Shown here: positions 68 to 32,644 of the stretch, piece after piece | Layout: each line of letters starts with the position of its first letter | Numbering within the stretch: the stretch's first letter is position 1 | From: Actinomycetota bacterium | Lineage (GTDB): Bacteria; Actinomycetota; CADDZG01; WHSQ01 | Length of the DNA: 37,843 nucleotides | NCBI GenBank assembly: GCA_016649855.1 | Contig: JAENWQ010000001.1 | Span: 1 to 37,843, forward strand | Direction: 5' to 3' | Program-made: the position numbers and the translations under genes | Notes under the pieces: generated by a model | Seen by the model: only the letters and a program-made list of their open reading frames with translations | The model's database searches: none | Told to the model about the DNA's origin: nothing

Positions 68-140
68 GCCGGGGTAGCTCAGACGGCAGAGCGATTCACT
101 CGTAATGAATAGGTCAGGGGTTCGATTCCCCTCCCCGGCT
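68..140 (+). tRNA. tRNA-Thr (anticodon CGT)
   Basis: Hand-folded cloverleaf of 73 nt. Acceptor stem gccgggg/ccccggc, D-stem gctc/gagc, anticodon stem attca/tgaat with loop ctCGTaa, T-arm agggg-ttcgatt-cccct, discriminator t. No encoded CCA. Confidence 0.9.
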
Positions 141-201
141 CTGCGAACACCTCTCCCCCCGTAGGCTTCAGTCGTGTACCAGGCCCGTCGATTCAACCCG
201 C

Positions 202-4066: not shown

Positions 4067-5266
4067 CTACAAGTGTGCAGGTTCCCGTTCCACGCCCAGC
4101 ATCTCATCTAGTTCTTCCCCACCTTCGCTCGGTCCGATCGCGATGATGCGATCTCCCGCCAGCAACTTGAAGGTGGGCTTAGGCCGGTAGGTCCACCGCC
4201 TCCCACGCTGCACGGCGAGGACGAACATGCCGGTCTCGGTCTCGATCTGTAGGTCCTTGATCGACTTCTCGTCGGCGGGGGACGATTCTCTGACGATCCC
4301 TTCGTAGCCGACCTCATCGCTCTCGATGAGAGCGGCGGCGATCACCGGATGGAGGTCCTCGCCCGCTTCGACCAACCGGGTCATCTCACGGGCGGAATCG
4401 AAGATGGATTCAGAAGCGCTTGCCAGACGGAGGAGGCCCCGGAGGTCGTCGGGGTTGCGGGCTTCCTGCGCACTCCGGAGCACCCAAGACTCGAGCTCGT
4501 CGTGGACCGCATCGGAGCGCGCTTCGAGGCTCGTGACTTCGGCGGCGAGCGCGCGATCGTTGAACAGCAGGGCGGAGTAAGCGAGGCCCACGGCGACCTC
4601 GGCCGAGTTCTTCATCTCGACCAGCAGATCGACGGCGCGGTCGAGGTCGGAGAGAACGATCTCGGGACCCTCGGGCGGCTCGGGGAGAGGCGGTGCCCCC
4701 ATCAACTCACGGGCAAGGTCGACGCCGTCCTCGGGGCCCTTGATGAGGAGGACGTCGCCTTCCGAGATCACGAAGGCTCCTCCCGGATCCAGGTCCCAGT
4801 CACCGTCGCTCCGGGTGGCGATGACCCACATGCCGATCTCGACCGGCATCGCGAGATCTGCAAGGGACTGACCGAGCGCGGCCGCTCCCGCGCGCACCTT
4901 CACGCGGGACACGATCTCGTCGGCATGTTTGAGATCCATACGGAGGTCGTCGACGATCCCGAGCCCCGAGTACACGACGTGTGCGATGTCCTCGGCGGCA
5001 TCGGCGATCTTCTCGACCGCGGATGCGATCGACAGGACCCCGGCCATGTGCTCCGCGTCCTCGGGGCTTCGCGCCGCGAGGATCGTGAGCTTCCTCAGCG
5101 AATGGATGTAGTCGGACATGCGCTCTTCGAGGCGTCTGACCTCGCGTGCGAGGTCTTCGTCCCCGAAGAAGACCGAGGCGTACGCCAGGTCCACCATGAG
5201 CTCCGAGCTGTCCTTTATCTCCGCCAGGAGCCCCTTGACGGTATGTGGACCTTCTCCGCTACTCAC
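4067..5266 (-). CDS. Cytoplasmic regulatory protein with duplicated PhoU-like helical and TrkA-C (RCK_C) domains
   Basis: 399-aa ORF with an internal two-fold repeat: LxxxKDxSELMVDLAYxxxxF...RxLE, then a beta-rich TrkA-C-like segment (GD.L...G). Lies 25 nt downstream of the MgtE-type permease on the same strand. Confidence 0.65.
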   Translation of the reverse strand: MSSGEGPHTVKGLLAEIKDSSELMVDLAYASVFFGDEDLAREVRRLEERMSDYIHSLRKLTILAARSPEDAEHMAGVLSIASAVEKIADAAEDIAHVVYSGLGIVDDLRMDLKHADEIVSRVKVRAGAAALGQSLADLAMPVEIGMWVIATRSDGDWDLDPGGAFVISEGDVLLIKGPEDGVDLARELMGAPPLPEPPEGPEIVLSDLDRAVDLLVEMKNSAEVAVGLAYSALLFNDRALAAEVTSLEARSDAVHDELESWVLRSAQEARNPDDLRGLLRLASASESIFDSAREMTRLVEAGEDLHPVIAAALIESDEVGYEGIVRESSPADEKSIKDLQIETETGMFVLAVQRGRRWTYRPKPTFKLLAGDRIIAIGPSEGGEELDEMLGVEREPAHL

Positions 5267-5291
5267 TGCTTCCCCCTCTTTCAGCCATCGA

Positions 5292-6674
5292 TCAGGCTAC
5301 TCCGAAGATCACGAGCGCCACCACGAGGCAGATCACCCCGAGGAGGTCCATCCCGCTCGAAACCAGCGGGATGGTGTGGTTGTCGGGATCGAGTCCCAGA
5401 CGGTAGGTAGCGATCGCCGCGTAGTAGCCGATCGCACCTGCAACGACGGTCGCGAGCAACCCTCCGACCATCACGACGCCGACGAACCTGAATGCTCCGG
5501 GGTATTCGGCGCCGATCAACTGAGCGGCGATCAATGTCGTTACCGCCGTGATGCTGTAGACGAGGATGCCCAGGACGAAGACGATCGTTCCGTCCAGCAA
5601 CGCGGCCGCGTCGGGCTTCGTGGTCGGAGTGACGGCCCCCAGGTGGAGTTTGGAGCCGAGGCGCGCCGACAGGATCGATCCCAGCGCGCCGGTGTTCTCG
5701 AGGAACCCCGGGATGATCATCAGGAACGCGGGGAACGGTCCGAACACATCCTCGAACCTCGGCTCCACAACCGTGCCCGCAAGGATGTCGAGCACGATCG
5801 CAACACACAGGATCGGGAAACTCTCTTTGATCACGCGCCGGACGACGGGAAGGGAACTGCGCCATCCGAAGATGAGCGACGCGACCGCCGCAGCCACCGA
5901 GATCATCCCGATCGCAGGAGTCACAACATCGATGCCTGCGAGGTAGGAGGCGATCAGCAGACAGGGGAGTGTGACGACGTCTCCTACGGTGGTGATCAGG
6001 ACCGCTCCTACCGAATCGAGATCCCATCCCTTCCGGTAAGACACGATCGAGAGATAGATCGTGAACGCAAGCACGAAGGCAGAGGACAGCAGGCCCCCGA
6101 CGAGGGCCACGGAGATGAAGTCCCAGGTGGACACCGTGTCGATCCCAAGGAGACCGGCGATGGACCGGGCCAGGACCCCCATGGTCACGGACGTCGAGAC
6201 GGTCAGCAGGGTTGCCGAGTAGACGTTCTGGAACAGTGAACCCTGGCGGTCGCTCGACACCTCGAAAAGGCCGGTGTGGATCGATGTCCCGAGGCGAGCG
6301 GCGAGCGCCCCGAAGATGTTGCCCCGCATCCCGATGGACACCGGGATCAGGACGAATAGGCCTCTGACCTCTCCGAGGCGTCCCTCCATGAAGGCCAGGG
6401 TCAGCCCCGCAAGGAGCGAGGTGAGGGCCGAGATGACGACCGCGACGCCGGCCTGTTTAACGGTGGCCCGCTCGGAGCCCCAGTAGTCCACGACCTGGCG
6501 CGCCGGATCGGCGAACCTCCGGGCGGTCCCTCGCACCGCCCTAGCGGGGCCCAGCACGGCGCGTGCGGCTCGCCCGAGGAACCGCAGGGGCGTATCCAGG
6601 GAAGAACCACGGCGTCCATCTGGTTGTTTATTCACACGCCTATCTGACCGTTTATTTCCACTTGGGAACCCCAA
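5292..6674 (-). CDS. MgtE-domain (SLC41-like) divalent-cation transporter, two MgtE repeats
   Basis: 460-aa polytopic membrane ORF with repeated MgtE-type motifs (GNIFGALAARLGTSIHTGL and NTGALGSILSARLGSKLHLG). The start is uncertain. The first ~20 codons after the TTG at 6674 are AT-rich and atypical, so a downstream GTG start is plausible. Confidence 0.7.
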   Translation of the reverse strand: MGFPSGNKRSDRRVNKQPDGRRGSSLDTPLRFLGRAARAVLGPARAVRGTARRFADPARQVVDYWGSERATVKQAGVAVVISALTSLLAGLTLAFMEGRLGEVRGLFVLIPVSIGMRGNIFGALAARLGTSIHTGLFEVSSDRQGSLFQNVYSATLLTVSTSVTMGVLARSIAGLLGIDTVSTWDFISVALVGGLLSSAFVLAFTIYLSIVSYRKGWDLDSVGAVLITTVGDVVTLPCLLIASYLAGIDVVTPAIGMISVAAAVASLIFGWRSSLPVVRRVIKESFPILCVAIVLDILAGTVVEPRFEDVFGPFPAFLMIIPGFLENTGALGSILSARLGSKLHLGAVTPTTKPDAAALLDGTIVFVLGILVYSITAVTTLIAAQLIGAEYPGAFRFVGVVMVGGLLATVVAGAIGYYAAIATYRLGLDPDNHTIPLVSSGMDLLGVICLVVALVIFGVA

Positions 6675-6725
6675 ACCGCTTGGGGGCGTCTGTACGAATA
6701 GTTACCGACAGCGACACGGGCGGAA

Positions 6726-6753
6726 AAGAAGTTGAAGGAAAGAAGTTGAAGGA
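6726..6753 (+). repeat. Perfect 14-bp tandem direct repeat (aagaagttgaagga x2)
   Basis: Read directly: 6726-6739 and 6740-6753 are identical. Purine-rich, 11 nt upstream of the ATG at 6765. Confidence 0.95.
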
Positions 6754-6764
6754 GAGGAGTACCG

Positions 6765-6971
6765 ATGGGATCTGAGAAGCAGGCGATCCGGGGCCAGCGG
6801 CCGCTCGGTCTCCCTCGTGCGTCCCAGAAATACGCCGAGGGAAGGATCTGTGACCACCCGGGATGCGAGACGAGATTGTCCACCTATAACCGCAGAGACA
6901 GGTGCTGGGCCCACGCCGAGATGAAGGTTCCCCGGCTGCGAGGCCGCAAGCCCGCTGCCGGCTCTGCCTGA
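6765..6971 (+). CDS. Small basic protein with a putative zinc-ribbon motif (C-x4-C ... C-x2-H)
   Basis: 68-aa ORF with RBS ggagaggag upstream. Contains the motif ICDHPGCETRLSTYNRRDRCWAH. No family name recognised. Confidence 0.5.
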   Translation: MGSEKQAIRGQRPLGLPRASQKYAEGRICDHPGCETRLSTYNRRDRCWAHAEMKVPRLRGRKPAAGSA

Positions 6972-7338: not shown

Positions 7339-8406
7339 GTGGGGTCTCCGAAGCTGATCGAACCATTCATCGCTCGGCGCGTCGCGCGCCGGGTCGCGGG
7401 TGATCCACATCCGGGCTCCTATCTGATGGACCGCCTGGCCCGCGATCTCGAGGCCGCGGTCCCCCGAGCGGAGCATCTCGTTGCCGAGATCACGCGTATC
7501 TCTCCTCCACCCCCGGTCGACTGGAAGATCATCGATCGTGCCGAGTGGGCCGAGAGCAACATCCGGAGCATGCACTCGATGCTGGCTGAGGTAGCGGACA
7601 AGGTGAGCCACCGGCTCGACAAAGCACCGCTGCCGGTTCGTCTCGCCCAGCGCACGCTCCTGTCGGCCGAGGTGGGAGCTCTTCTCGGCTACGTCTCCCG
7701 GCGCGTCCTCGGCCAGTACGACCTCCTGTTGGGAGGAGGTGCGCCGGAGGGTGATTCCAAGGACGACGGCGTGCTCTATTTCGTCGGGCCCAACATGGTC
7801 GAGACCGAGCGACAACTCGGCTTCGTTCCCGAGGACTTCGCGCTCTGGGTCGCGGTCCACGAGATCACCCACCGTTTCCAGTTCGCAGGAGTGCCATGGC
7901 TCCGGGCGAGGTTCTTCTCGCTCATGCGCGACTACCTCGACACTGTGAATCTCGATGCTCGCAAGCTCACCGAGAGATTCAAGGAGGGCGCGGCCAGGCT
8001 CAGGGACCGGTCGATCCCTTCCGAGGAACGCAACCCCATATATCTGCTGTCGTCGCCGGAGCAACGCGAGATCATGAACCAGATCCAGGCGCTGATGTCG
8101 GTCGTCGAAGGACACGGAAACTTCGTGATGGACGCGGTCGGCGAGGACGTGATCCCGTCGTTCCGCCGGATGCGTCATGTCTTCGAGGGGCGCAGGAAAC
8201 AGACATCGCTGGCCCAACGAGCGGTGAATCACGTCCTGGGTCTCGAGATGAAGCTGCGTCAGTACGAGATCGGACGAACGTTCTGCGATCAGGTGGCAGC
8301 CCAAGGGGGACTGGATTCGGTGGCGCGTATCTTCGTCCGCGAGGAGGCGTTCCCGACCATGGCCGAGCTGCGTGCTCCGGGTGACTGGCTGAGGAGGGTC
8401 GCGTGA
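7339..8406 (+). CDS. Zinc-dependent metalloprotease, DUF2342 family
   Basis: 355-aa ORF with an HExxH site (VAVHEITHRFQF). Sits immediately upstream of tilS, as Rv3626c does in M. tuberculosis. GTG start; its stop overlaps the tilS start (GTGA). Confidence 0.8.
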   Translation: MGSPKLIEPFIARRVARRVAGDPHPGSYLMDRLARDLEAAVPRAEHLVAEITRISPPPPVDWKIIDRAEWAESNIRSMHSMLAEVADKVSHRLDKAPLPVRLAQRTLLSAEVGALLGYVSRRVLGQYDLLLGGGAPEGDSKDDGVLYFVGPNMVETERQLGFVPEDFALWVAVHEITHRFQFAGVPWLRARFFSLMRDYLDTVNLDARKLTERFKEGAARLRDRSIPSEERNPIYLLSSPEQREIMNQIQALMSVVEGHGNFVMDAVGEDVIPSFRRMRHVFEGRRKQTSLAQRAVNHVLGLEMKLRQYEIGRTFCDQVAAQGGLDSVARIFVREEAFPTMAELRAPGDWLRRVA

Positions 8407-9413
8407 CCGAGAAGCCCCTCGGGGGGCCCGGCTATCCGGTGGTCGAGGCAGCCCTGGGTGCGATCGAGCGCTACCGGATGCTCGAGAAGGGGGATGTCGT
8501 CGTGGTTGCGGTGTCCGGGGGCCCGGATTCGGTCTGCTTGCTCGATGTCCTGCAGCGCATCTCCTCTCGGTTGGAGCTGACGATCCACGTAGCGCACGTC
8601 GATCACGGTCTGTCGGACGATTCCGAAACGATCGCCGGTCGCGTCGCCACCCGAGCCGCAGAGGCGGGGTTCGACGTGCACGTGGTGCGGGCACCGGATC
8701 TCGCCGGCCCCAACCTGCACGCACGGGCGCGCGAGTTCAGGTACGGGTTCTTCGACATCGTGTGCGAGCAAACGGGCGCCCGCGGTGTCGTAACCGGTCA
8801 CACCCTCGACGATCGCGCGGAGACGATCCTGGCCCGGTTGATCCACGGAGCGGGCACGGCGGTGCTCGCGGGAGTGAAGCCGGTGGACGGGAACAGATTG
8901 CGCCCTCTGCTCGAAGTAAGGCGTTCCGAAACGCGCGCCTATTGCGAGGAGGTGGTGCTCGAGTTCAACGACGACCCGGGCAACGATGACCTGAGGTTCG
9001 AGCGCGCAGCCGTTCGCAAGTTGTTGATCGGTCCGATCCAGGAGCACTGGGGGGAAGGCGCGATCCGCGCGATCGCGATGAGCGCGGAACGCCTTGCGGA
9101 AGATGCGGGGGCGCTCGCGGGGATCGCAGACCGTCTGTATGCCGATCTTGTTTCCGAGGACGACCCGACTTTCGATCGTGCCGCGCTGGTGGCGCTCCCG
9201 AGAGCGGTACGGAGGCGTCTCCTCGAGGCCGCCGTCGGGCGGGTGCGTGACCGCTCGGCCGGGATCGACGAGGTCCTCGATGCCCTGGACGCCGACCCGA
9301 AGGCGGGGGCCAGGTACGCGCTTCCCGGGGGCCGCGAGATCGTGATCGAGAAGGATCGTGTGGTCGTCCTGAATCCGGCCTCCGCCGGCGATGGCGACGA
9401 GGACGAGGCCTAG
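8403..9413 (+). CDS. tilS: tRNA(Ile)-lysidine synthetase
   Basis: PP-loop motif VAVSGGPDSVCLL, 336 aa, located upstream of hpt and ftsH. Confidence 0.9.
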   Translation: MTEKPLGGPGYPVVEAALGAIERYRMLEKGDVVVVAVSGGPDSVCLLDVLQRISSRLELTIHVAHVDHGLSDDSETIAGRVATRAAEAGFDVHVVRAPDLAGPNLHARAREFRYGFFDIVCEQTGARGVVTGHTLDDRAETILARLIHGAGTAVLAGVKPVDGNRLRPLLEVRRSETRAYCEEVVLEFNDDPGNDDLRFERAAVRKLLIGPIQEHWGEGAIRAIAMSAERLAEDAGALAGIADRLYADLVSEDDPTFDRAALVALPRAVRRRLLEAAVGRVRDRSAGIDEVLDALDADPKAGARYALPGGREIVIEKDRVVVLNPASAGDGDEDEA

Positions 9414-9429
9414 TGCCTCGGCATAGGAT

Positions 9430-10002
9430 GTGCCGATGACCCAGGACCCCCACCCAGATATCGAGAAGGTCCTGATAAGCGCGGACGACATCGACGAGAT
9501 GATCGCCCGGCTCGCGAAGCAGATCACCGAGGACTACCGGGACAAGGATCTCTTGCTCGTCGGCGTTCTCAAGGGTGCCTTCGTGTTCATGGCGGACCTT
9601 GCGCGGGGGATCGACCTCCCGATCGAATTTGACTTCATGGCGGTGTCGTCCTATGGGTCGGCGACCAAGTCGTCCGGGGTCGTGAGGATCATGAAGGACC
9701 TCGACTACGAGATCACCGGGCGCCATGTCCTCTTGATCGAGGACATCATCGACTCCGGCCTGACGATCAACTATCTGCTTCGCTACCTCGAAGCGCGTCA
9801 GCCGGCGTCGCTCGAGATCTGCTCGTTGTTCTGGAAGAAGGGCGAGCAGGCGGTGCCGATGGAGGTGAAGTACCCCGGATTCGAGATCCCACCGGTCTTC
9901 ATCGTCGGCTACGGCCTCGACTATGCCGAGAAGTACCGCAACCTGCCGTACATCGGCGTGCTAAAACCGTCTGCCTACGGGGCCGAACCCCCGCCCGAGT
10001 AG
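9430..10002 (+). CDS. hpt: Hypoxanthine phosphoribosyltransferase
   Basis: 190 aa with PRPP-binding motif [13 protein letters not shown] and C-terminal [17 protein letters not shown]. Confidence 0.92.
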
Positions 10003-10064
10003 GCGCCGGAGGGCGCCCCACAGAGGGTTCCCTACAAACAGGGGACTGCTACCCTTGGGCCATC

Positions 10065-12005
10065 ATGAATCGAATCTTTAGATCCGCGATCTTCTATCTC
10101 ATCCTCATCATCGCCGTCGTCTGGGTGTTCCAGCTCTATCGCGGCGGCGCCGATCGCCCCCAGCAGCTCGAGTCCGTCAACCAGTGGCACGGGCTGATCG
10201 AGGACAGTCAGGTCGACACGGCCAAATTCCTTACGAAAGAAGAGAGCGTCCAGGGCGAGCTTGCCGACGGGACCTCGTACGAGCTGTTCCTACCGACCGG
10301 AACCGTGGCCGAGCACTCCGAGTTCGCTCGCGAAGCGGGCGTCGACGTCTCAGCCGACCCGCAGCAGGGTTCGGTGCTCTTGTCCGTCCTGTTCCAGTTC
10401 CTGCCGATCCTGATCATCGTCGGGTTCTTCTTCTTCCTGATGCAGCAGATGCAGGGTGGAGGCAACCGTGTGATGTCCTTCGGGAAATCGAAGGCGCGCC
10501 TCGTATCCAAGGATCAGCCCAAGATCACGTTCGCGGATGTCGCCGGGCTCGACGAGGCGATCGAAGAGCTCGAGGAGATCAAGGATTTCCTCGAGTCTCC
10601 GCAGAGGTTCCAGGCGATGGGCGCCAAGATCCCCAAGGGTGTCTTGTTGTTCGGTCCGCCGGGGACCGGCAAGACCCTCCTGGCCCGCGCCGTCGCGGGT
10701 GAGGCAGGAGTTCCCTATTTCTCGATCTCGGGTTCCGACTTCGTCGAGATGTTCGTGGGCGTCGGCGCGAGCCGGGTACGCGACCTTTTCGAGCAAGCGA
10801 AGGCGAGCTCACCGGCCATCATCTTCATGGACGAGATCGACGCGGTCGGTCGTCACCGAGGTGCGGGGATGGGCGGCGGCCACGACGAGCGCGAGCAGAC
10901 CCTGAACCAGTTGCTCGTCGAGATGGATGGCTTCGATGCGAAGTCCGGGGTCATCTTGATCGCCGCGACCAACCGACCCGACATCCTCGACCCCGCGCTC
11001 CTCCGGCCGGGTCGCTTCGACCGGCAGATCGTCGTGGATCGCCCCGATCTGATCGGACGAACGGGGATCCTGAAGGTCCACACGCGCGGCAAGCCGCTCG
11101 CCAAGGAGATCGACATCGAGGTCCTGGCGCGCCGGACCCCCGGGTTCACCGGCGCCGACCTGGCCAACGTCGTTAACGAAGCCGCGCTCCTCGCGGCTCG
11201 GTTCAACAAGACCGAGATCGCCATGGAAGAGCTCGAAGAAGCGATCGATCGCGTGCTCGCAGGTCCGCAGCGCAGGAGCCGTGTGATCTCCGATCACGAG
11301 AAGAAGGTCATCGCTTACCACGAATCCGGTCACGCACTCGTGAGCCACGCCCTTCCCAATGCGGATCCGGTGCATAAGGTTTCGATCGTGGCACGTGGAC
11401 GTGCGCTCGGTTACACGCTTACGCTTCCGACCGAAGATCGTTTCCTCGTCACTCGAAGCGAGCTGATCGATCAGCTCGCGATGCTGCTCGGGGGCCGGGT
11501 GGCGGAGGAACTCGTATTCGATGAGCCGACCACCGGTGCCTCGGACGACATCCAGCGGTGCACCCGTATCGCCAAACAGATGGTGACGCAGTATGGGATG
11601 TCCAACCTCGGGCCACTGGCGCTCGGCGAGAGCGACTCACAGCCGTTCCTTGGACGCGACTTCGGGCATATGAAGGACTACTCGGACGACGTTGCTGCGA
11701 AGATCGACGAAGAGATCCACCGTCTTGTCGAAGAGGCGCATGACGAAGCGCGCGAGATCCTCACCAAGTATCGGGACAAGCTCGATCTCATGAGCGAGCG
11801 ACTTCTCGAGAAGGAATCACTCGAGAAGGAAGAGGTCGCCGAGATCCTCGCCGAGGTCGCCAAGCAGTTCCCCGACAACCCGGTCGAGCGTGCCCGGATC
11901 CGCCGGGAACAGCGTCGCGAAGAGACCGGCGATGTCGTGGGCCCCTCGGGGAGCCCGAAGAAGTCGCGGCTGCCCCGCCTGAAGCCGGGCCTCGGCGAAG
12001 CCTGA
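10065..12005 (+). CDS. ftsH: ATP-dependent zinc metalloprotease FtsH
   Basis: 646 aa with N-terminal TM helices, Walker [12 protein letters not shown] region and zinc site HESGHAL. Confidence 0.97.
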
Positions 12006-12062
12006 CCCCGGCCCAGCACCGAGTGCACCGAACCGTCTCATCCACTCGATACGCTTGCCCCC

Positions 12063-13652
12063 ATGAGCGCGGAGTTTGAGGCTGGCCGGCAGATCGATCA
12101 GGGAGCGATCGAGAAGGCCGTGAGCGAGATCCTCGAGGCCATCGGTGAGGATCCACATCGGGATGGGCTGGTCGATACGCCGCGTCGTGTCGCCGCGATG
12201 TACGCCGAGATCTTCGCGGGCATCCACGAAGATCCGAAGGATCATCTCGATGTTGTTTTCGAGGCGAATCACGACGAGATGATCCTCGTGAAGGACATAC
12301 CTCTGTATTCGATGTGCGTCCCCTCCAAAGAGCGCCTAAATACTCCGTTCGGTGTCACAAGGGCATCCGACGTCAAGTTGGGGGACCGCCTGTTTGCTTT
12401 TGACGATGAGGGTCGGCTAGTACAAACGACGGTCACGTCCATCGGATGGAGAAGAGCCGCTGAGGTGGTCGAGCTGACGGCCGGTCCATTGAAACTGCGG
12501 GTAACTCCCGAGCATCCGATTCAGACCCCCGATGGTTGGAGATCCGCTGGCTCCCTCCAAGCCAGCGACAAGATCGCAGGCGTCGAGCCGAGGAAGCTAT
12601 GCCAGTCGCGGTGGCCCGTCATAGAGGGGTATGCGCTCGGCTATGCCCTGGGGACAATCGGGAGCGATGGAAGCGTTCAAGACGGACGGCGTGTTTCGGT
12701 TGTCGTCAATGACCTGGCCTTCGCGACCCGATTTGCTCGTTCGCTGAACGTCGCCTTCGGCATCGAACGTCCGGTCGAACCCATCATGGTCCCCAGTGGT
12801 TACCTTGGCCGCGACGTCCAGATGTATCGGGTTCGCTTCGTTTCCCGACGGGTAGCTTCGCTAGTACTTCATTGGTTTGGAGGATCGAAGGCGACGAAGG
12901 AGTTCCATTTCCCGTGGGTAGTTCTTCGCTCCAAGGAAATGATGGACGGTTTCCTGGACGGCTATGTCGACGGTGACGGGTGCGCCGTCAAGTCGCAGCC
13001 GGGAGCCCGGATGATCATCACCAGCAATGAACACTTCGCGGAGGAGCTCGCTGATGTGATCGGGATACCGGTGGGGACTGGTTCAAGGGAGGGAATGTTC
13101 AAGCTCTACCTTTCTAAGGAATGGCATCTACCCAAGTACGGGCGCAAGGGCTTCCGCTCGAAAGACGTTCCGCTCTTGCCGCCGGACGCCGAATGGTGGG
13201 AGCTTGATTCAATTGAACGAGTGCCTCAAGGGGGGACGAAGCCTTTCCGTGTTTATAGCTTTGAGTGTCGGCCTTATCCCAGCTTCCTGGTTGGCGGCGT
13301 CCACACGCATAATTGTGAACATCACACCATTCCGTTTTTTGGCAAAGCTCATGTTGCTTACATCCCGAATAAGAAGGGCCAGATAACCGGTCTCTCCAAG
13401 ATCGCTCGCATGATCGACGTTCTATCCAAGCGGCCACAGGTCCAGGAGAGATTGACCACTCAGATCGCGAGCGCGCTTGAAGAAGCGCTGGAGCCGCGAG
13501 GCGTGCTTGTTGTCATCGAAGCCGAGCACCTCTGCATGAGCATGCGAGGGATCAGGAAGCCCGGAACCTCGACCGTGACTTCCGCCGTCAGGGGAATCTT
13601 CCGGACCAACGACGCCACGCGGGCGGAGGCCATGGGCCTCATCTTTCATTAG
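12063..13652 (+). CDS. folE: GTP cyclohydrolase I precursor interrupted by an in-frame intein (exteins 12063..12314 and 13314..13652)
   Basis: 529 aa, against about 190-220 aa for typical FolE. The N-part ends ...[11 protein letters not shown] and the C-part starts [32 protein letters not shown]. Joined, they restore the conserved FolE core (196 aa). Confidence 0.9.
12315..13313 (+). mobile_element. Full-size class-1 intein with LAGLIDADG homing endonuclease, inserted in folE
   Basis: 333 aa. Cys1 (CVPSKERL...), block B TPEHP, two dodecapeptide motifs ([14 protein letters not shown] and [12 protein letters not shown]), block [23 protein letters not shown], followed by Cys+1. GC is about 48-55% in hand-counted 60-nt lines, against 65-77% in flanking genes. 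Confidence 0.88.
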
Positions 13653-13656
13653 TTCT

Positions 13657-13686
13657 GCGGATCGTCGAGACGATCCGCTTCTGTGT
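13657..13686 (+). terminator. Hairpin after folE (9-bp stem, 4-nt loop) with a weak T-rich tail
   Basis: gcggatcgt-cgag-acgatccgc followed by ttctgtgt, starting 5 nt after the folE stop codon. Confidence 0.4.
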
Positions 13687-13752
13687 CCCCGGCGGCCTGA
13701 TCTGGCATCGAGTCCCCGGCCGGGTGCCTGATCTGGCATTGCGTCTCCGGCC
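13686..13752 (+). repeat. Imperfect tandem repeat (~27-31 bp units, 2.3 copies) in the folE-folP spacer
   Basis: Units are tccccggcg-gcctgatctggcat-cgag, then tccccggccgggt-gcctgatctggcat-tgcg, then tctccggcc. The 14-mer gcctgatctggcat is exact at 13695-13708 and 13726-13739. Confidence 0.9.
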
Positions 13753-13764
13753 TAGACTCTGCTG

Positions 13765-14598
13765 ATGGAACTGTTGATGCGGGGCCACTCGCTGTCTCTG
13801 GATCGGTGTGTCGTGATGGGGGTGCTGAACGTCACCCCCGATTCCTTCTCCGACGGTGGGCTCTGGTTCGACCATCAGAGCGCGATCAAGCACGGGGTCG
13901 AGATGGTCGCTCAGGGGGCCGGGATCATCGATGTCGGCGGGGAATCCACGCGCCCCGGCTCCGAACCCGTGCCGGAGGACGAGGAACTACGCAGGGTGAT
14001 GCCGGTCATCGAGGCTCTCGTCGCCGAGATCGACGTCCCGCTCTCCATCGATACACGCAAGGCCTCGGTGGCGATGGCCGCCGTCGAAGCAGGTGCTCGT
14101 ATCGTCAACGACACCTCCGGCGAGACGGCCGATGAAGAGATGGGTTCGGTGGCCGTCGAGACGGGTGCCGCGATCGTCGTGATGCACTCCCGCGGCACGC
14201 CGGCGACGATGCGTTCGTTGACCGAGTACGGGGACGTCGTCGCTGATGTCGGCGCGTTCCTCGAGGGCCGGGCGCACGAGCTCGAGGCGATGGGTGTGGA
14301 CCACCGTTCGATCGTTCTCGATCCAGGTTATGGATTCGCCAAGACGCCGCTTCAGAACCTCACGATGCTCAGGAGGATCGACGAGCACCTCGAGCTCGGG
14401 TATCCGCTTCTCGCCGGCACCTCCAGGAAGTCGTTCATCGGTGCCACCTTGGACCTGCCCGAGGAGCAGCGCCTCGAAGGCACCGCGGCGACCGTCGCGT
14501 GGGCTGTGTCGAAGGGAGCACAGATGGTCCGGGTCCACGACGTGGAGGCGATGGTGCGGACGGTGAGGATGATCGAAGCGATCACGAATGCGCAATGA
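13765..14598 (+). CDS. folP: Dihydropteroate synthase
   Basis: Motifs GVLNVTPDSFSDGG, IIDVGGESTRPG and GTSRKSFIG. The start could also be the ATG at 13777. Confidence 0.93.
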   Translation: MELLMRGHSLSLDRCVVMGVLNVTPDSFSDGGLWFDHQSAIKHGVEMVAQGAGIIDVGGESTRPGSEPVPEDEELRRVMPVIEALVAEIDVPLSIDTRKASVAMAAVEAGARIVNDTSGETADEEMGSVAVETGAAIVVMHSRGTPATMRSLTEYGDVVADVGAFLEGRAHELEAMGVDHRSIVLDPGYGFAKTPLQNLTMLRRIDEHLELGYPLLAGTSRKSFIGATLDLPEEQRLEGTAATVAWAVSKGAQMVRVHDVEAMVRTVRMIEAITNAQ

Positions 14599-14608
14599 GG
14601 ACAAAGTC

Positions 14609-14965
14609 ATGAGTGATGCCATCAAGATCTCGGAGCTGATCGTCGACGCCCGCATCGGGGTGAGTGACGAGGAGCGCGCCGTCACGCGGCCGCTGAGGAT
14701 CGACATCTCGATGACCACCGACACGAGCGCGGCCGGCCAGAGCGATGATCTCGAGGAAACCGTCGGCTACGACGTGGTCGTGGTGGCGGTCGCTGACCTG
14801 GTCAGGGCCCGGGCGCGGAAGCTCCTCGAGCACCTGGCCGAGGAGATTGCGGCCCTGATACTCACATTCGATGGCGTCTCCTCCGTTACGGTAGAGGTGG
14901 AAAAGGGAAACCCTCCGATCGAAGAGAACATCCGAGCGGTTTCGGTACGCATCACCCGGCCGTAA
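14609..14965 (+). CDS. folB: Dihydroneopterin aldolase
   Basis: ATG at 14609 preceded by gagga. N-terminus MSDAIKISELIVDARIGVSDEER resembles the usual FolB start. Lies between folP and folK. The ORF track's 14588 start overlaps folP. Confidence 0.85.
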   Translation: MSDAIKISELIVDARIGVSDEERAVTRPLRIDISMTTDTSAAGQSDDLEETVGYDVVVVAVADLVRARARKLLEHLAEEIAALILTFDGVSSVTVEVEKGNPPIEENIRAVSVRITRP

Positions 14966-14984
14966 ACCGTCCGAGAGAGGCCCC

Positions 14985-15470
14985 ATGGTCACGTCTTACA
15001 TAGCGATCGGATCGAACGTAGGAGAACGAAGAACGTTCTGCCGGGAGGCGGTCGCGTTCCTCGGTGAGACTCCGGGCGTCGACGTCATCGCGACCTCGAG
15101 TCTGTATGAAACCTCCCCCGTGGGTGGCCCCCCTCAACGCTCGTTCGTGAACGCCGTGGTGAAGATCGAGACCTCTCTGTCTCCTCGGGCACTACTCGAT
15201 CTCTGCAAGAGGATCGAGGCTCGCCTCGGCCGGGAGCCCGGAGATCTCAGGTGGGGGCCGCGGGTCGCCGATCTCGACGTTCTCCTCTTCGACGACGTGA
15301 AGGTCAACGAACCCGATCTCGAGATCCCTCACCCGCGCATGACCACCAGGGCTTTCGTGCTCATCCCTCTGATCGAGATCGATCCCGAGGTCGCCGACCC
15401 GTGGGGGATGCCCTACAGAGATCTCGTCGACGAGGCCGAGGGTGACGTGCGTCTGATGGAGCCGTTCTAA
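14985..15470 (+). CDS. folK: 2-amino-4-hydroxy-6-hydroxymethyldihydropteridine diphosphokinase
   Basis: 161 aa with AIGSN.G, YETSPVG, WGPRVADLDVLLF and IPHPRM..RAFVL motifs. Confidence 0.92.
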   Translation: MVTSYIAIGSNVGERRTFCREAVAFLGETPGVDVIATSSLYETSPVGGPPQRSFVNAVVKIETSLSPRALLDLCKRIEARLGREPGDLRWGPRVADLDVLLFDDVKVNEPDLEIPHPRMTTRAFVLIPLIEIDPEVADPWGMPYRDLVDEAEGDVRLMEPF

Positions 15471-15475
15471 GAGTC

Positions 15476-18175
15476 ATGCGTAAGGCTCTGGCTGTGTCGG
15501 CAACAACTGCTCTCCTACTCGGTCTGCTTGCTGTGGTACCGGTCTCGGCCCGAAGCGATCGACCCAATGTCGTTCCGGGACGCTCCACTTCCACTCCTTC
15601 GTTCGTGACGGGGATCGAGACGGCTCCGCGCACGGGCTCGCCGGCAGATGTGGCGCGGTCATACCTCCGCGATAACGCCGGCCGTTACGGGATCAGCGAT
15701 ACCGACAACGATCTCGAGGTGCTCGCCGTAGCGAGGAAGGGTGCGCGGGCTATGGTGCGTTTCGGCCAGCGATACCAGGGCGTAGAGGTGTTCGGCGCTC
15801 AGTATCTCGTGCACATGGTCAAGGAGGATGGCGGTTACGCGGTCACCTCGACGAATGGTCACTACTTCACGAACATCAGTACGTCAACCACACCACGTTT
15901 CGATGCCGCAGCGGCCAAGCATCTGGCGACCGCTCGTGCGCGTCGCAACATCAAGGTGTCCAAAGTCGACTCGCATCCGCTAACGATCCTGCCCGACGGC
16001 ACCGGCGCTCTCGCGTATCACTTCACCGTGTGGGGCTCGACGCTGAGGGGGGGCCCGGTCAAGTACGAGATGTTCCTCGACGCCCGCACCGGCGGCATCG
16101 CGTTCATGTTCGACAACCTGCAGCACGACACCATCCAGGGCCAGGATTCACATGATGATCTGGTTCCGCTCGAGGTCACCACCACCACCGGGACATCGAC
16201 GTGGGAATTAAGGGACCAGTCACGCAGCATGTTCGAAACCGGTGGTGGGGAGATCACCACACACGATGTCAGGGGAGATCTCGATTACACCGGTACGGAC
16301 GCGAACATGGTCGTCGCCTCGGCCGACCCCTTCACCGACGATCGGTCCGCCTCCGAGGCTCACTGGGGCGCGGGAGTGACCTACGACTTCTACGAGTCGC
16401 TCGGGCGCAGCTCCATCAACGGGAACCCACTCGCGCCCCTCTCGATCAAGTCCTCGGTCCACTTCGAGGAGGTTCCGGGAGAGGGCTACTGCAACGCGTT
16501 CTGGGATGGAACCCAGATGGTTTACGGAGACTGCCTGCTGGCGGAGGGCGAGACCTATCCACTCACGGCGGATCTCGACATCGTCGGGCACGAGCTGACC
16601 CACGGAGTTACCCAGTACACCGCGAACCTCGTGTACGCGAACCAGTCCGGGGCGATGAACGAAGGCATTTCCGACTACTTCGGCAACGCGATCGATGCCA
16701 ATGCCAACAGTCTCGACCTGTCGGACCCCACTGCCGGTTACCTCGCCGAGGATCTGTGTCAAAGCGACACACCACCTCCTCCGATCGAGACGGCCAGCGG
16801 CTGGCGTTGTCCGGAGCGCGACCTGAACGACGGGCGGACGACCGACGACTTCATCTACTACCTGATCGACTTCGACAACGGCGGTGTGCACCTGAACTCC
16901 ACGATCTACGCCGGGGCGCTGTGGGACTTTCGTGAGGCGCTCGACGCGACCGACGAGCAGGGGGGTAGCGACCGGGCGGACGCATACGTCTACAAGGCGC
17001 TTGCCGATTTCATGACGCCCCTCGATGACTTCGTCGACGGACGCACCGCTCTGATCGAAGCGATCACCGAGCTCGGTCGCCCGACCATGGTCGATGACCT
17101 CGCTGCCGCGAACGCGGCGTTCGATGGGAAGGGCATCGTGGCCGGCTGGGACACCGAACCAGGCAACGACGCCACGATCCTCGTCGAGGACGTTCTACCG
17201 GTCGGGTTCCTCATCTCCCCACCTCAGGTGAGCGGCAAGAGGTTCATCATCGGGGACTACGGGGACAAGGAGCAGGCGTGTTGTGTTGCCGAGCAGATCT
17301 TCGTCGGCAACACCTCCGTCCCGGTCGACTACACGAAGGTGAGCTTCGACCAAGCCGACGCGCTGAACGACGAGACACCCGACCTTGGAGGGAGGCAGGC
17401 GGTCTGGGCTCACCTGCGCGCGGCTCCGTCCGGCGCTCTCGACTTCGACATCAACGGTCGCAAGATCGGGACCAACAAGAAGCAGCACCTGGCCGGTGGC
17501 AAGGGCTTCCAGTGGTTCCCGTCCATCTGGGGCAGATTGCTCGCCTGGGAGGACACCCGTGGAGACGGCGACATCTATGCCAGGAAGATCGGCGGCAAGG
17601 CGCGGAGGCTGACCGGCGCCGGCTTGCAGATGAACCCACAGGTGCAGGGGAACTGGATCGTCTGGCAGGACCTCAAGGGCGGTACCAACATCGGGATGTA
17701 CAACTGGAAAACGAAGAAGACCAAGACGATCAAAGCCTCCGAAATCAGTTACTTCGGTCCTCCGGGGACGGGACCCGGCTACGTGTACTGGTACGAGGAC
17801 GTTGACGGAAAAGATGGCTTCGGAGCGATCAGGCGGGCCCGCTTCGGCTCGTCCACGGTCGAGACCGTCGTGAAGGAGAACGATCCGAACTCTCCGTGGT
17901 GGTTCGCCAACACGGGTCAACTGATCCCGTCGGCCAACAAGAAGTACGTGACCTATTACGACGAGTGGGCGTTCCTCGGCGGCCCGGGCGGATCCATCGT
18001 CGATACCAGAGAGATCGGGCGCGACGTCTGGATCGTCAAGACCTCCGGAGGTTCGCCGCAGAAGATCAGTCAGAACATCGGCGATCAGGCTTACCCCGCG
18101 GCCCTGTCCGGAAGGGCTCGCAAGGCCATGTGGATCGATTCGTCGCAAGGCCGGTCTGACCTGATGAGGAACTGA
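15476..18175 (+). CDS. Secreted thermolysin-family (M4) zinc metalloprotease with a long C-terminal repeat extension (beta-propeller-like)
   Basis: Signal peptide, then propeptide-like N-region, then HExxH (VGHELTHGV) plus the downstream NEGISDYFG glutamate motif diagnostic of M4. About 330 C-terminal residues carry repeated W.D.(R/K)GG.DIY-like units. Confidence 0.85.
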   Translation: MRKALAVSATTALLLGLLAVVPVSARSDRPNVVPGRSTSTPSFVTGIETAPRTGSPADVARSYLRDNAGRYGISDTDNDLEVLAVARKGARAMVRFGQRYQGVEVFGAQYLVHMVKEDGGYAVTSTNGHYFTNISTSTTPRFDAAAAKHLATARARRNIKVSKVDSHPLTILPDGTGALAYHFTVWGSTLRGGPVKYEMFLDARTGGIAFMFDNLQHDTIQGQDSHDDLVPLEVTTTTGTSTWELRDQSRSMFETGGGEITTHDVRGDLDYTGTDANMVVASADPFTDDRSASEAHWGAGVTYDFYESLGRSSINGNPLAPLSIKSSVHFEEVPGEGYCNAFWDGTQMVYGDCLLAEGETYPLTADLDIVGHELTHGVTQYTANLVYANQSGAMNEGISDYFGNAIDANANSLDLSDPTAGYLAEDLCQSDTPPPPIETASGWRCPERDLNDGRTTDDFIYYLIDFDNGGVHLNSTIYAGALWDFREALDATDEQGGSDRADAYVYKALADFMTPLDDFVDGRTALIEAITELGRPTMVDDLAAANAAFDGKGIVAGWDTEPGNDATILVEDVLPVGFLISPPQVSGKRFIIGDYGDKEQACCVAEQIFVGNTSVPVDYTKVSFDQADALNDETPDLGGRQAVWAHLRAAPSGALDFDINGRKIGTNKKQHLAGGKGFQWFPSIWGRLLAWEDTRGDGDIYARKIGGKARRLTGAGLQMNPQVQGNWIVWQDLKGGTNIGMYNWKTKKTKTIKASEISYFGPPGTGPGYVYWYEDVDGKDGFGAIRRARFGSSTVETVVKENDPNSPWWFANTGQLIPSANKKYVTYYDEWAFLGGPGGSIVDTREIGRDVWIVKTSGGSPQKISQNIGDQAYPAALSGRARKAMWIDSSQGRSDLMRN

Positions 18176-18253
18176 ACCAGGCGAAACATGGTCCATGTTT
18201 CGTTCGCCTATGCTTCGCTCCCGACCGGTACCCCCCGTGGACTGGAGCGAGAC

Positions 18254-19123
18254 ATGTCGATCCCACCCTCGTCACCTTTCACCTTCACGCTGGCCGGCGC
18301 GGGTTGCGTCGGCACGGCGGTCGCCGTGCTTCTGGCGCGCGCCGGCCACATGCCCGTTGGAACCGCCTCCCGGAGCGCCGGGTCGGCCGAGCGAGCGGCC
18401 GGCCTGCTGGGGGCGGAGGCCTACTCGGTCGCCCGACTCCCCCCGGCCGATGTCGTGCTCGTCGGCGCCCCCGATGATGCGATCGCCGAGGTCGCAGGGC
18501 TGGTGCCCGCCGTACGGGGATCCGTCGTGTGGCACTTCGCGGGGGCACGGGGTCTTGGCCCCCTGGAGCCGGCGCTGTCCAGGGGCGCTCTCGGCGCCGC
18601 CCTGCATCCCGTCCAGGCGTGTCCTTCGATCGAGGCGGCCACCCTGCGTCTCCCCGGCAGCGCATGGGGGGTGACCTGTTCGGATGAGCTGCGGGAGTGG
18701 GCTCAGGTAGTGATCACCGGGGATCTCCGCGGGATCCCCGTCACCGTTGCCTCGAAGGATCGACCGGCGTGGCACGCGTCGTCGGTTATCACCGCCAACG
18801 GTATCTCCGCGCTCCTGTCTGCTGGGGAACGGGTCCTCGGTTCGATCGGAGTGGATGACCCCATCGCGGTTCTCGGGCCGATCGCAGCGGGCGTGATCGC
18901 CAACGCGCGCGAGGCGGGCGGAGCCACCGCGACCCTCACCGGCCCGGTGGTCAGGGGAGAGGTGGCCGTTATCGAACGGCACCTCGCCGCGCTCGAGGGG
19001 ACCGAAGGTCGTGCTCCATATGCGACGGCGACGCGGATGATCATCGCGGCCGCGGTCGCGTCGGGGCGGATCGACAACGAGACCGCCGCGAAGATGAGCG
19101 CGCTTCTGGGCGACGAACGATGA
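18254..19123 (+). CDS. Rossmann-fold plus DUF2520-like oxidoreductase-type protein
   Basis: ATG at 18254 preceded by ggag. Dinucleotide-binding motif LAGAGCVGTAVAVLLARAGH. Position upstream of panC matches M. tuberculosis Rv3603c. The stop overlaps the panC start (ATGA). Confidence 0.65.
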   Translation: MSIPPSSPFTFTLAGAGCVGTAVAVLLARAGHMPVGTASRSAGSAERAAGLLGAEAYSVARLPPADVVLVGAPDDAIAEVAGLVPAVRGSVVWHFAGARGLGPLEPALSRGALGAALHPVQACPSIEAATLRLPGSAWGVTCSDELREWAQVVITGDLRGIPVTVASKDRPAWHASSVITANGISALLSAGERVLGSIGVDDPIAVLGPIAAGVIANAREAGGATATLTGPVVRGEVAVIERHLAALEGTEGRAPYATATRMIIAAAVASGRIDNETAAKMSALLGDER

Positions 19124-32537: not shown

Positions 32538-32610
32538 GCTGGAGTAGCTCAGTTGGTAGAGCAGCCGATTTGTAATCGGCAGGTCGCAGGTTCGACTCCT
32601 GTCTCCAGCT
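32538..32610 (+). tRNA. tRNA-Thr (anticodon TGT)
   Basis: Hand-folded, 73 nt. Acceptor stem gctggag/ctccagc, D-arm gctc-agttggta-gagc, anticodon stem gccga/tcggc with loop ttTGTaa, T-arm gcagg-ttcgact-cctgt. Confidence 0.9.
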
Positions 32611-32644
32611 CGACCGGATGGGCAAGTGACTAACGGAGTCGAAC

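Follow-up and report, generated by a model that had tools for sequence, protein, structure and literature searches.

An intein with a LAGLIDADG endonuclease domain at the zinc-ligand cysteine of GTP cyclohydrolase I (FolE)

Here we describe an intein that interrupts folE, the gene for GTP cyclohydrolase I (which opens the folate pathway), in a 37,843-nucleotide stretch of DNA from an Actinomycetota bacterium (contig JAENWQ010000001.1 of assembly GCA_016649855.1, positions 1 to 37,843 of the forward strand), which we refer to throughout as the window. The original prediction, made from the letters of the window alone, held that the 529-residue folE open reading frame (ORF) carries a complete intein with a homing endonuclease at positions 12315 to 13313, and both the ORF and the insert are confirmed to the base. 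Our conclusion, to which we assign a probability of about 0.9, is that 12315..13313 is a genuine, splicing-competent class-1 intein with a functional LAGLIDADG endonuclease, situated in a housekeeping folE, and that it is a selfish element which is polymorphic within its species and has moved between phyla. That there is an intein in folE agrees with what is seen elsewhere far beyond chance: the insert has at least 240 homologous protein clusters, and the best 120 of these all carry it in FolE.

Layout of the folE precursor

The precursor ORF (12063..13652, on the forward strand, as are all the gene and protein features given below) encodes 529 residues with a mass of 58.7 kDa, comprising N-extein, intein and C-extein in a single frame that is intact over all 529 codons. 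The N-extein (12063..12314) consists of FolE residues 1–84, ends in VKDIPLYSM and aligns without gaps to intein-less alleles. The intein (12315..13313, 999 nt) corresponds to precursor residues 85–417 and is 333 residues long, starting with Cys and ending in VHTHN; in its layout, a LAGLIDADG endonuclease domain interrupts a Hint splicing domain. The C-extein, with the stop codon (13314..13652), provides residues 85–196 of the mature enzyme. Its first residue is Cys418 of the precursor, the putative splice-junction nucleophile Cys+1, encoded by the TGT codon at 13314..13316.

Joining the exteins gives a FolE of 196 residues with only two cysteines in total. The calculated masses of this protein (21.7 kDa) and of the intein (37.0 kDa) agree with the sizes of about 22 and 37 kDa that had been anticipated. 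The unspliced precursor matches the GTP_cyclohydroI model of Pfam (PF01227) in two separate stretches (E 6.9e-74), and scores above the cutoffs of TIGR00063 (238 bits against 181.6) and NF006826 (274 bits against 162).

Natural intein-less alleles define the insert

Deleting 12315..13313 in silico yields a product that matches PF01227 in one stretch (profile positions 1–178 of 179, E 5.5e-79) and that aligns to solved FolE structures without a gap over the junction (E 1.2e-77). Uninterrupted FolE proteins of 196 residues that match the spliced product also exist in nature: P0291 is 99% identical and is found on 17 contigs, P0292 is 96% identical, and another is 95% identical. Four of the contigs that encode P0291 (L085–L088) align to the intein-deleted window with zero gaps, at 99.2–99.7% nucleotide identity over 1.8–2.8 kb. 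A more distant relative (L082, assembly GCA_046715095.1; 95% nucleotide identity) likewise has an uninterrupted folE of 196 codons, with the same synteny as the window: zincin-tilS-hpt-ftsH-folE-folP-folB-folK-M4 peptidase. The colinearity of the joined exteins with FolE, which was part of the original prediction, is thus borne out by profile, structures and natural alleles alike.

The empty allele reads ...TATTCGATG|TGCGAACATCAC... across the junction, which for L085–L088 can also be given as …ACATACCTCTGTATTCGATG|TGCGAACATCACACCATTCC…, and the occupied allele reads ...TATTCGATG|TGCGTC...CATAAT|TGTGAACATCAC... at its two ends. The insert thus behaves as a discrete unit of 999 bp that some members of a single species have and others lack, and its boundaries are fixed by the natural intein-less alleles independently of any motif.

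Intein and endonuclease features of the insert

We counted conservation over 116 full-length homologues of the insert. Block A (12315..12353) opens with Cys1, precursor Cys85, which is present in all 116. Block B (12486..12527, containing VTPEHP) includes the TPEH motif with intein residues Thr64 and His67; the Thr is found in 113 homologues and the His in every one. Blocks F and G (13242..13313) end in a penultimate His (92/116) or Lys (22/116) and a terminal Asn (116/116), and directly after the THN junction Cys+1 is again invariant (116/116). Between blocks B and F, an endonuclease domain can be placed approximately at 12615..13187 (precursor residues ~185–375) from its PF14528 match, Foldseek and secondary structure. 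LAGLIDADG motif 1 (12627..12674, containing GSDGS) carries the acidic residue Asp202, intein Asp118, at a position that is Asp or Glu in 114/116; motif 2 (12948..12983, containing DGDGC) carries Asp305, intein Asp221, with Asp in 114/116. All of the motifs quoted in the original prediction (TPEHP, GSDGS, DGDGC and the end of block F/G) are thus present.

Profile and structure comparisons point the same way. The Pfam model LAGLIDADG_3 (PF14528) matches the insert above threshold (E 8.4e-7; 29.6 bits against a cutoff of 22.5). When compared with sequences in the PDB, the N-terminal 100 residues of the insert match a bacterial intein-like (BIL) domain (5e-5) and the Mtu RecA intein (2e-3). An AlphaFold2 model of the intein, built from 17 family members, has a mean predicted local distance difference test score (pLDDT) of 92.4 and a predicted template modelling score (pTM) of 0.80. 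Its best Foldseek matches are endonuclease-bearing inteins (TliVMA, PhoVMA, PI-PfuI, PI-TkoII and PI-SceI). Next come two LAGLIDADG enzymes, I-DmoI and I-Tsp061I, and the mini-intein of Mtu RecA, which superposes with a root-mean-square deviation (rmsd) of 1.6–1.9 Å. The Foldseek matches and the secondary-structure pattern of the model both support an alpha-beta-beta-alpha-beta-beta-alpha endonuclease core. On these features we classify the insert as a class-1 intein that carries a LAGLIDADG homing endonuclease of the two-motif, monomeric type, and predict that it both splices and cleaves DNA, in keeping with the original claim of a complete intein with endonuclease.

Both activities appear to be under selection. 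Cys1, the block-B His, the terminal Asn and Cys+1 are each kept in 116/116 homologues, as they are in the natural mini-inteins described below, which suggests that splicing is required. Similarly, the acidic residues of the endonuclease are each kept in 114/116, and the ratio of non-synonymous to synonymous substitution (dN/dS) is ~0.1–0.26 in the Hint and endonuclease parts alike, a rough figure as dS is saturated in every available pair; dN itself is no higher in the endonuclease domain than in the Hint domain. Such values suggest that the endonuclease too is maintained.

Two other classifications were considered and rejected. The insert is not a class 2 or class 3 intein, given that Cys1 is present and invariant and that the block-F Cys is at F:7 rather than F:4. 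A BIL domain can be set aside too, as the insertion is in frame in a conserved enzyme, its C-terminal junction is Asn-Cys, and precise empty alleles of it exist.

The +1 residue aligns with the zinc-ligand cysteine

Aligning the spliced product to E. coli K-12 FolE (from NC_000913.3) pairs window residues Cys418, His421 and the Cys of EHLCM with E. coli Cys111, His114 and Cys182 when Met1 is counted, that is, with Cys110, His113 and Cys181 in the mature numbering. These three residues of the E. coli enzyme reportedly bind the catalytic zinc. Their conservation, the matches to the family models and the folate-gene setting place the spliced product with the zinc-dependent type IA enzymes. The original prediction had placed Cys+1 at the zinc-ligand position of the CEHH motif, and the alignment agrees; the ligand role itself is established background. 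By this alignment, Cys+1 of the intein is the same cysteine that would later hold the catalytic zinc. The precursor should be catalytically inactive, as the original prediction held, on two grounds: its Cys+1 is one of the zinc ligands, and the intein interrupts the core of the FolE fold.

Evidence for mobility

Several independent lines of evidence support mobility of the intein, presumably by homing. The 999-bp presence/absence polymorphism is exact, among contigs whose flanks are 99.2–99.7% identical. Within this one species, intein presence is incongruent with the relatedness of the flanks: an intein-less contig (L087) differs from the flanks of the window at 5 of 1801 nt, while an intein-bearing contig (L089) is 2.0% diverged from the window in the flanks and 0.6% diverged inside the intein.

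The composition of the intein is also foreign to its surroundings. GC content at third codon positions (GC3) in the window is 0.66 for the intein, 0.71–0.73 for the folE exteins and 0.77–0.89 for neighbouring genes (7339..19123). That the exteins lie below all of the neighbours might point to co-conversion over longer tracts, or to horizontal replacement of folE. Over 64 hosts, mean GC3 is 0.75 in the intein compared to 0.89–0.90 in the distal exteins (Wilcoxon p ~4e-12, a value that ignores the shared ancestry of the sequences). Of 2016 pairs of hosts, 360 are more alike in the intein than in the FolE exteins; in 72 the excess is above 10 points, mostly across phyla. A Gemmatimonadales and an Alcaligenaceae host, for example, share 65% identity in the intein and 46% in the exteins.

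A further signature is found at the junction, where we compared 64 intein-bearing folE genes with 67 intein-less controls whose overall GC3 is the same. The intein-bearing genes favour A/T-ending codons at the first four positions of the C-extein (C-E-H-H; 13314..13325), GC3 at codons +1, +2, +3 and +4 being 0.42, 0.47, 0.36 and 0.50, respectively, compared to 0.85, 0.81, 0.75 and 0.75 in the controls. At codon +1, the TGT:TGC ratio is 37:27 in intein-bearing genes and 10:57 in controls (Fisher p = 2.7e-7, nominal, with shared ancestry again ignored). The same genes show no enrichment of A/T-ending codons on the N-extein side. The contrast is seen in the lineage of the window as well: both intein-bearing alleles have TGT at +1, and 5/5 intein-less ones have TGC. 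This signature fits co-conversion of a short donor flank during homing, or a preference of the endonuclease for a variant of its target. The putative homing site spans 12303..12314 (left half) and 13314..13325 (right half, the four codons with the A/T-ending signature), and reads CTGTATTCGATG|TGCGAACATCAC when empty.

A family of FolE inteins across about ten phyla

Using the insert alone as query against protein clusters at 90% identity (E <= 1e-3), we retrieved 240 clusters. The best 120 are all proteins of 430–573 residues (a few of them truncated) with FolE exteins, and wherever the CEHH motif is contained in these, the intein lies immediately upstream of it as ...[HK]N|CEHH. Among representatives of 50%-identity clusters there were 361 matches at E <= 1e-3 and 29 at E <= 1e-30. 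Species-representative genomes were scanned with a 17-sequence alignment of the intein (A1); in these contigs, one genome per GTDB species, 160 genomes encode a relative, and 68 of the best 80 carry the intein in folE at this site. A scan of the same genomes with the single sequence found no relatives, and only the alignment succeeded.

The hosts belong to about ten phyla. In Actinomycetota they include metagenome-assembled genomes (MAGs) and cultured Amycolatopsis, Saccharopolyspora (including S. spinosa NRRL 18395), Prauserella, Actinomadura and Nonomuraea. Elsewhere they are found in Rokubacteria/Methylomirabilota, Nitrospira, Gemmatimonadota, Acidobacteriota, Planctomycetota, Elusimicrobia, a deltaproteobacterium, Armatimonadota and an Alcaligenaceae MAG. 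Named database entries for these proteins read ‘GTP cyclohydrolase I’ or ‘hypothetical protein’, and ‘intein’ appears in none of them. The family is therefore not rare; it is abundant in public data and simply unannotated. As for the window itself, the deposited annotation of the contig apparently has a 185-residue protein (P0139; 13095..13652), which runs from Met345 inside the intein to the C-terminus of FolE, in place of the 529-residue precursor, and this fragment call hides the intein.

Family members at various stages of endonuclease loss occupy the FolE site. Two are natural mini-inteins (P0164, 366 residues, and P0216, 377 residues), in which the intein is ~170–180 residues long and the endonuclease has been lost. 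In three others (P0154, P0195 and P0147) the endonuclease domain is partly deleted. All five retain Cys1, the block-B His, the terminal His-Asn and Cys+1, and P0164 also retains the block-B Thr. Two more FolE relatives, P0152 and P0158, also have partly deleted or scrambled endonuclease domains and retain the same splicing residues (Cys1, block-B His, terminal His-Asn and Cys+1), and P0158 carries an extra N-terminal ~140 residues on FolE.

Genomic setting

The intein-bearing folE follows ftsH (10065..12005) and precedes the rest of the folate operon, folP (13765..14598), folB (14588..14965) and folK (14985..15470), in the conserved cluster tilS-hpt-ftsH-folE-folP-folB-folK. Because it is located in this cluster, with folP, folB and folK downstream, we take the intein-bearing gene to be the housekeeping copy. 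A tblastn search of the window with the spliced FolE found no second folE, as had been claimed. On the contig that encodes the closest non-identical intein (L090, encoding P0002; 77% identity), the intein-bearing folE is divergent from folP-folB-folK, to which it is co-directional in the window; the layout of the operon around the intein-bearing folE is therefore not fixed. Rfam and ARAGORN/tRNA scans of the window returned two tRNA-Thr genes (anticodons CGT and TGT, at 68..141 and 32538..32611) and nothing else.

Free-standing derivatives in Streptomyces

Twelve Streptomyces loci (L065, L066, L069, L070 and L073–L080) carry, instead of an intein, a free-standing homologue of ~330 residues. 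In 12/12 of these loci the ORF (~5983-6001..6950-6978 in locus coordinates) lies ~70–90 nt downstream of an intact, intein-less folE (~5210-5920) on the same strand, in the order ftsH-folE-ORF. Its first residues are M-x-Y-G, and Cys1 is replaced by Leu, Thr or Ser; in most, (S/G)PDLL stands where block B had TPDHP; Leu takes the place of the block-F Cys; and the protein ends in RE or RA rather than HN, followed by a stop codon. Both LAGLIDADG motifs and their Asp residues are intact. A model of the ORF shows the whole intein fold (pLDDT 82; top Foldseek matches VMA inteins and PI-SceI), and in the tree the ORF branches, on a long stem, inside the actinobacterial radiation of FolE inteins. There are at least 120 protein clusters of this kind across Streptomyces, under the names ‘hypothetical protein’ or ‘DOD-type homing endonuclease domain-containing’. 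Of the adjacent Streptomyces folE genes, 7/12 have the A/T-ending TGTGAACATCAT at the point of the former insertion.

The arrangement recalls the yeast WHO/HO genes, which are intein-derived, free-standing, non-splicing LAGLIDADG genes beside a presumed target, FBA1 (PMC7282806, on Coughlan et al. 2020). Like these, the Streptomyces ORF appears to be non-splicing and intein-derived and lies next to a housekeeping metabolic gene. Unlike them, it is bacterial and has no zinc-finger domain, and a search downstream of the ORF for a duplicated folE fragment, as found in WHO elements, gave nothing (E > 0.7). We tentatively suggest, as a possibility for which the odds are somewhat unfavourable, that the ORF is an active or domesticated WHO-like element derived from the FolE-intein lineage.

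A model for splicing and homing, and its alternatives

From its motifs, the intein would be expected to act as follows. Translation would give the 58.7-kDa precursor, in which Cys1 would perform an N-S acyl shift; the resulting thioester would be attacked by Cys+1 (Cys418), with transfer of the acyl group; Asn333 would then cyclise, assisted by the penultimate His; and an S-N shift would create the native peptide bond ...YSM-CEHH.... The products would be the 21.7-kDa FolE and the free 37-kDa intein. Cys+1 would be free to bind zinc only after ligation, so that the precursor would be catalytically dead. In homing, the freed intein would cut intein-less folE alleles at about CTGTATTCGATG|TGCGAACATCAC, and repair from an occupied allele would copy in the 999 bp and, with it, a few bases on its 3' side.

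A number of observations weigh against our conclusion that this is an active, mobile class-1 intein. The generic Pfam models Hint, Intein_splicing, PT-HINT and Vint all score below their thresholds on the insert, so that of the two profile checks that had been suggested, LAGLIDADG came out positive and Hint only weak; for this reason our Hint assignment rests on the PDB sequence matches, the conserved blocks and the predicted fold. Block F is atypical. By alignment to BIL and RecA-type sequences, position F:4 is Ser399 (intein Ser315, conserved in 113/116) and the usual Asp is absent, and Pro takes the usual position of the block-F His. Three residues after F:4, Cys318 of the intein is conserved in 115/116 (Ser315 to Cys318 are encoded at 13257..13268), and it may serve in core packing, or in redox or metal chemistry. 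The block-F Asp and His are common but not universal in inteins, and their absence does not exclude membership of class 1; details of catalysis may differ from those of textbook class-1 inteins. As to mobility, the empty alleles could stem from precise loss and need not mean that the intein is still being gained, the codon-usage tests treat related sequences as independent, and within actinobacterial families such as the Pseudonocardiaceae the intein tree largely tracks taxonomy, which means that much of the inheritance is vertical.

This last observation is what might be expected of a domesticated, immobile intein, one that splices yet has a dead endonuclease and passes by vertical descent only, and the several family members with truncated or deleted endonuclease domains fit such a history too. 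The copy in the window, however, has both LAGLIDADG motifs and their acidic residues intact, dN in its endonuclease domain does not exceed that in its Hint domain, the presence of the intein is at odds with flank relatedness (with 0.6% divergence inside against 2.0% outside), and the codon signature next to the junction is present. We therefore consider immobility unlikely. Further still from our conclusion would be an insertion that does not splice at all, leaving folE as a pseudogene whose function is taken over by a different GTP cyclohydrolase, such as FolE2. The deposited annotation apparently calls only the 185-residue C-terminal fragment, and FolE2 might lie elsewhere in the genome, of which 37.8 kb is in view. 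We regard this as highly improbable: the frame is uninterrupted, splicing residues are kept in 116 homologues from about ten phyla and in the mini-inteins at the FolE site, folE holds its housekeeping position in the operon, and the exteins are strongly constrained (extein dN 0.10 against P0002, with dS saturated).

A different question is whether the intein serves the host, with Zn2+ or a disulfide trapping the precursor at Cys+1 and so gating the synthesis of folate, pterins and queuosine precursors to host benefit. That splicing might respond to zinc or redox state had been raised in the original prediction. Cys1 and Cys+1 are both thiols, the block-B His is invariant and Cys+1 aligns with zinc ligand Cys110. 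There are also precedents. Zinc reversibly inhibits other Cys-dependent inteins in vitro (review PMC10663303, citing Mills & Paulus 2001) and, in its native actinobacterial host, splicing of M. smegmatis DnaB intein 1 (PMC7360933). Redox control through a disulfide is known for the P. abyssi MoaA intein, which likewise lies in a cofactor-biosynthesis enzyme (PMC10663303). Set against this, no feature of the sequence is specific to regulation; the intein is dispensable, since intein-less alleles at over 99% identity coexist in the same species; and the foreign composition, cross-phylum spread and decaying endonuclease domains are what would be expected of a purely selfish element. As inteins generally sit at catalytic residues, the position of this one is by itself no evidence of a sensor. 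We thus think a regulatory role improbable, if a little less so than immobility, and favour a selfish element that splices and homes.

Significance

Inteins are usually found in proteins of replication, repair and nucleotide metabolism. FolE, at its zinc-ligand cysteine, is a widespread and previously undescribed intein host and site that falls outside this usual set, and public annotation overlooks it. The site displays the whole homing cycle, with empty alleles, full inteins, decaying endonucleases, mini-inteins and an escaped derivative in Streptomyces. The natural pairs of intein-bearing and intein-less alleles, at >99% identity, offer a clean system in which to study conditional zinc or redox regulation in a metalloenzyme, a matter still debated; were such gating to be real, a metabolic enzyme would be switched post-translationally, by metal or redox state, in nature. 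Protein engineering may also profit from the mini-inteins, which are natural, compact and have Cys/Cys junctions.

Comparison with known systems

The original prediction knew of no characterised FolE intein and suggested a new insertion site. In the literature searched, we likewise came across no mention of an intein in FolE (GTP cyclohydrolase I). Novikova et al. 2016 (PMC4760082) list FolE neither in their main text nor in their top-15 table, and earlier cataloguing elsewhere is possible. The site is thus new in the sense that none has been described in this literature, but not in the sense of being scarce, as the family is abundant, unannotated, in public data that include cultured Amycolatopsis and Saccharopolyspora.

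In mechanism and architecture the FolE intein is ordinary; its novelty lies in the host protein that it occupies and in the site. Among sequences in the PDB, the Mtu RecA intein (PI-MtuI) is, after the BIL domain, one of the closest matches of the Hint part (E ~2e-3; rmsd 1.6–1.9 Å over ~100 residues). It too is a class-1 intein from an actinobacterial host, with Cys1, Cys+1, terminal His-Asn and a LAGLIDADG endonuclease, and its splicing is inhibited by zinc in vitro according to the literature. It differs in that its host is a recombinase rather than a folate enzyme and the Cys+1 of RecA is not a metal ligand, while the FolE intein, for its part, has Ser at F:4 and lacks the block-F His. The best structural matches over the whole molecule are TliVMA, PhoVMA, PI-SceI and PI-PfuI (Foldseek E 4.5e-20 to 1e-12), which share with the FolE intein a Hint domain interrupted by a two-motif LAGLIDADG domain. 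Sequence identity to these is only 12–16%, their hosts are archaea or yeast, and they interrupt ATPase or RNR-type genes; PI-SceI and PI-PfuI, moreover, are ~100 residues longer and have extra DNA-recognition regions.

With regard to the host protein, the nearest parallel is the P. abyssi MoaA intein, whose host is also a cofactor-biosynthesis enzyme with cysteine- and metal-dependent chemistry. That intein is archaeal, and its trap pairs an N-extein Cys with Cys1, for which the FolE N-extein has no equivalent Cys. M. smegmatis DnaB intein 1, the case of zinc inhibition in a native actinobacterial host, resides in a replicative helicase and not in a zinc enzyme.

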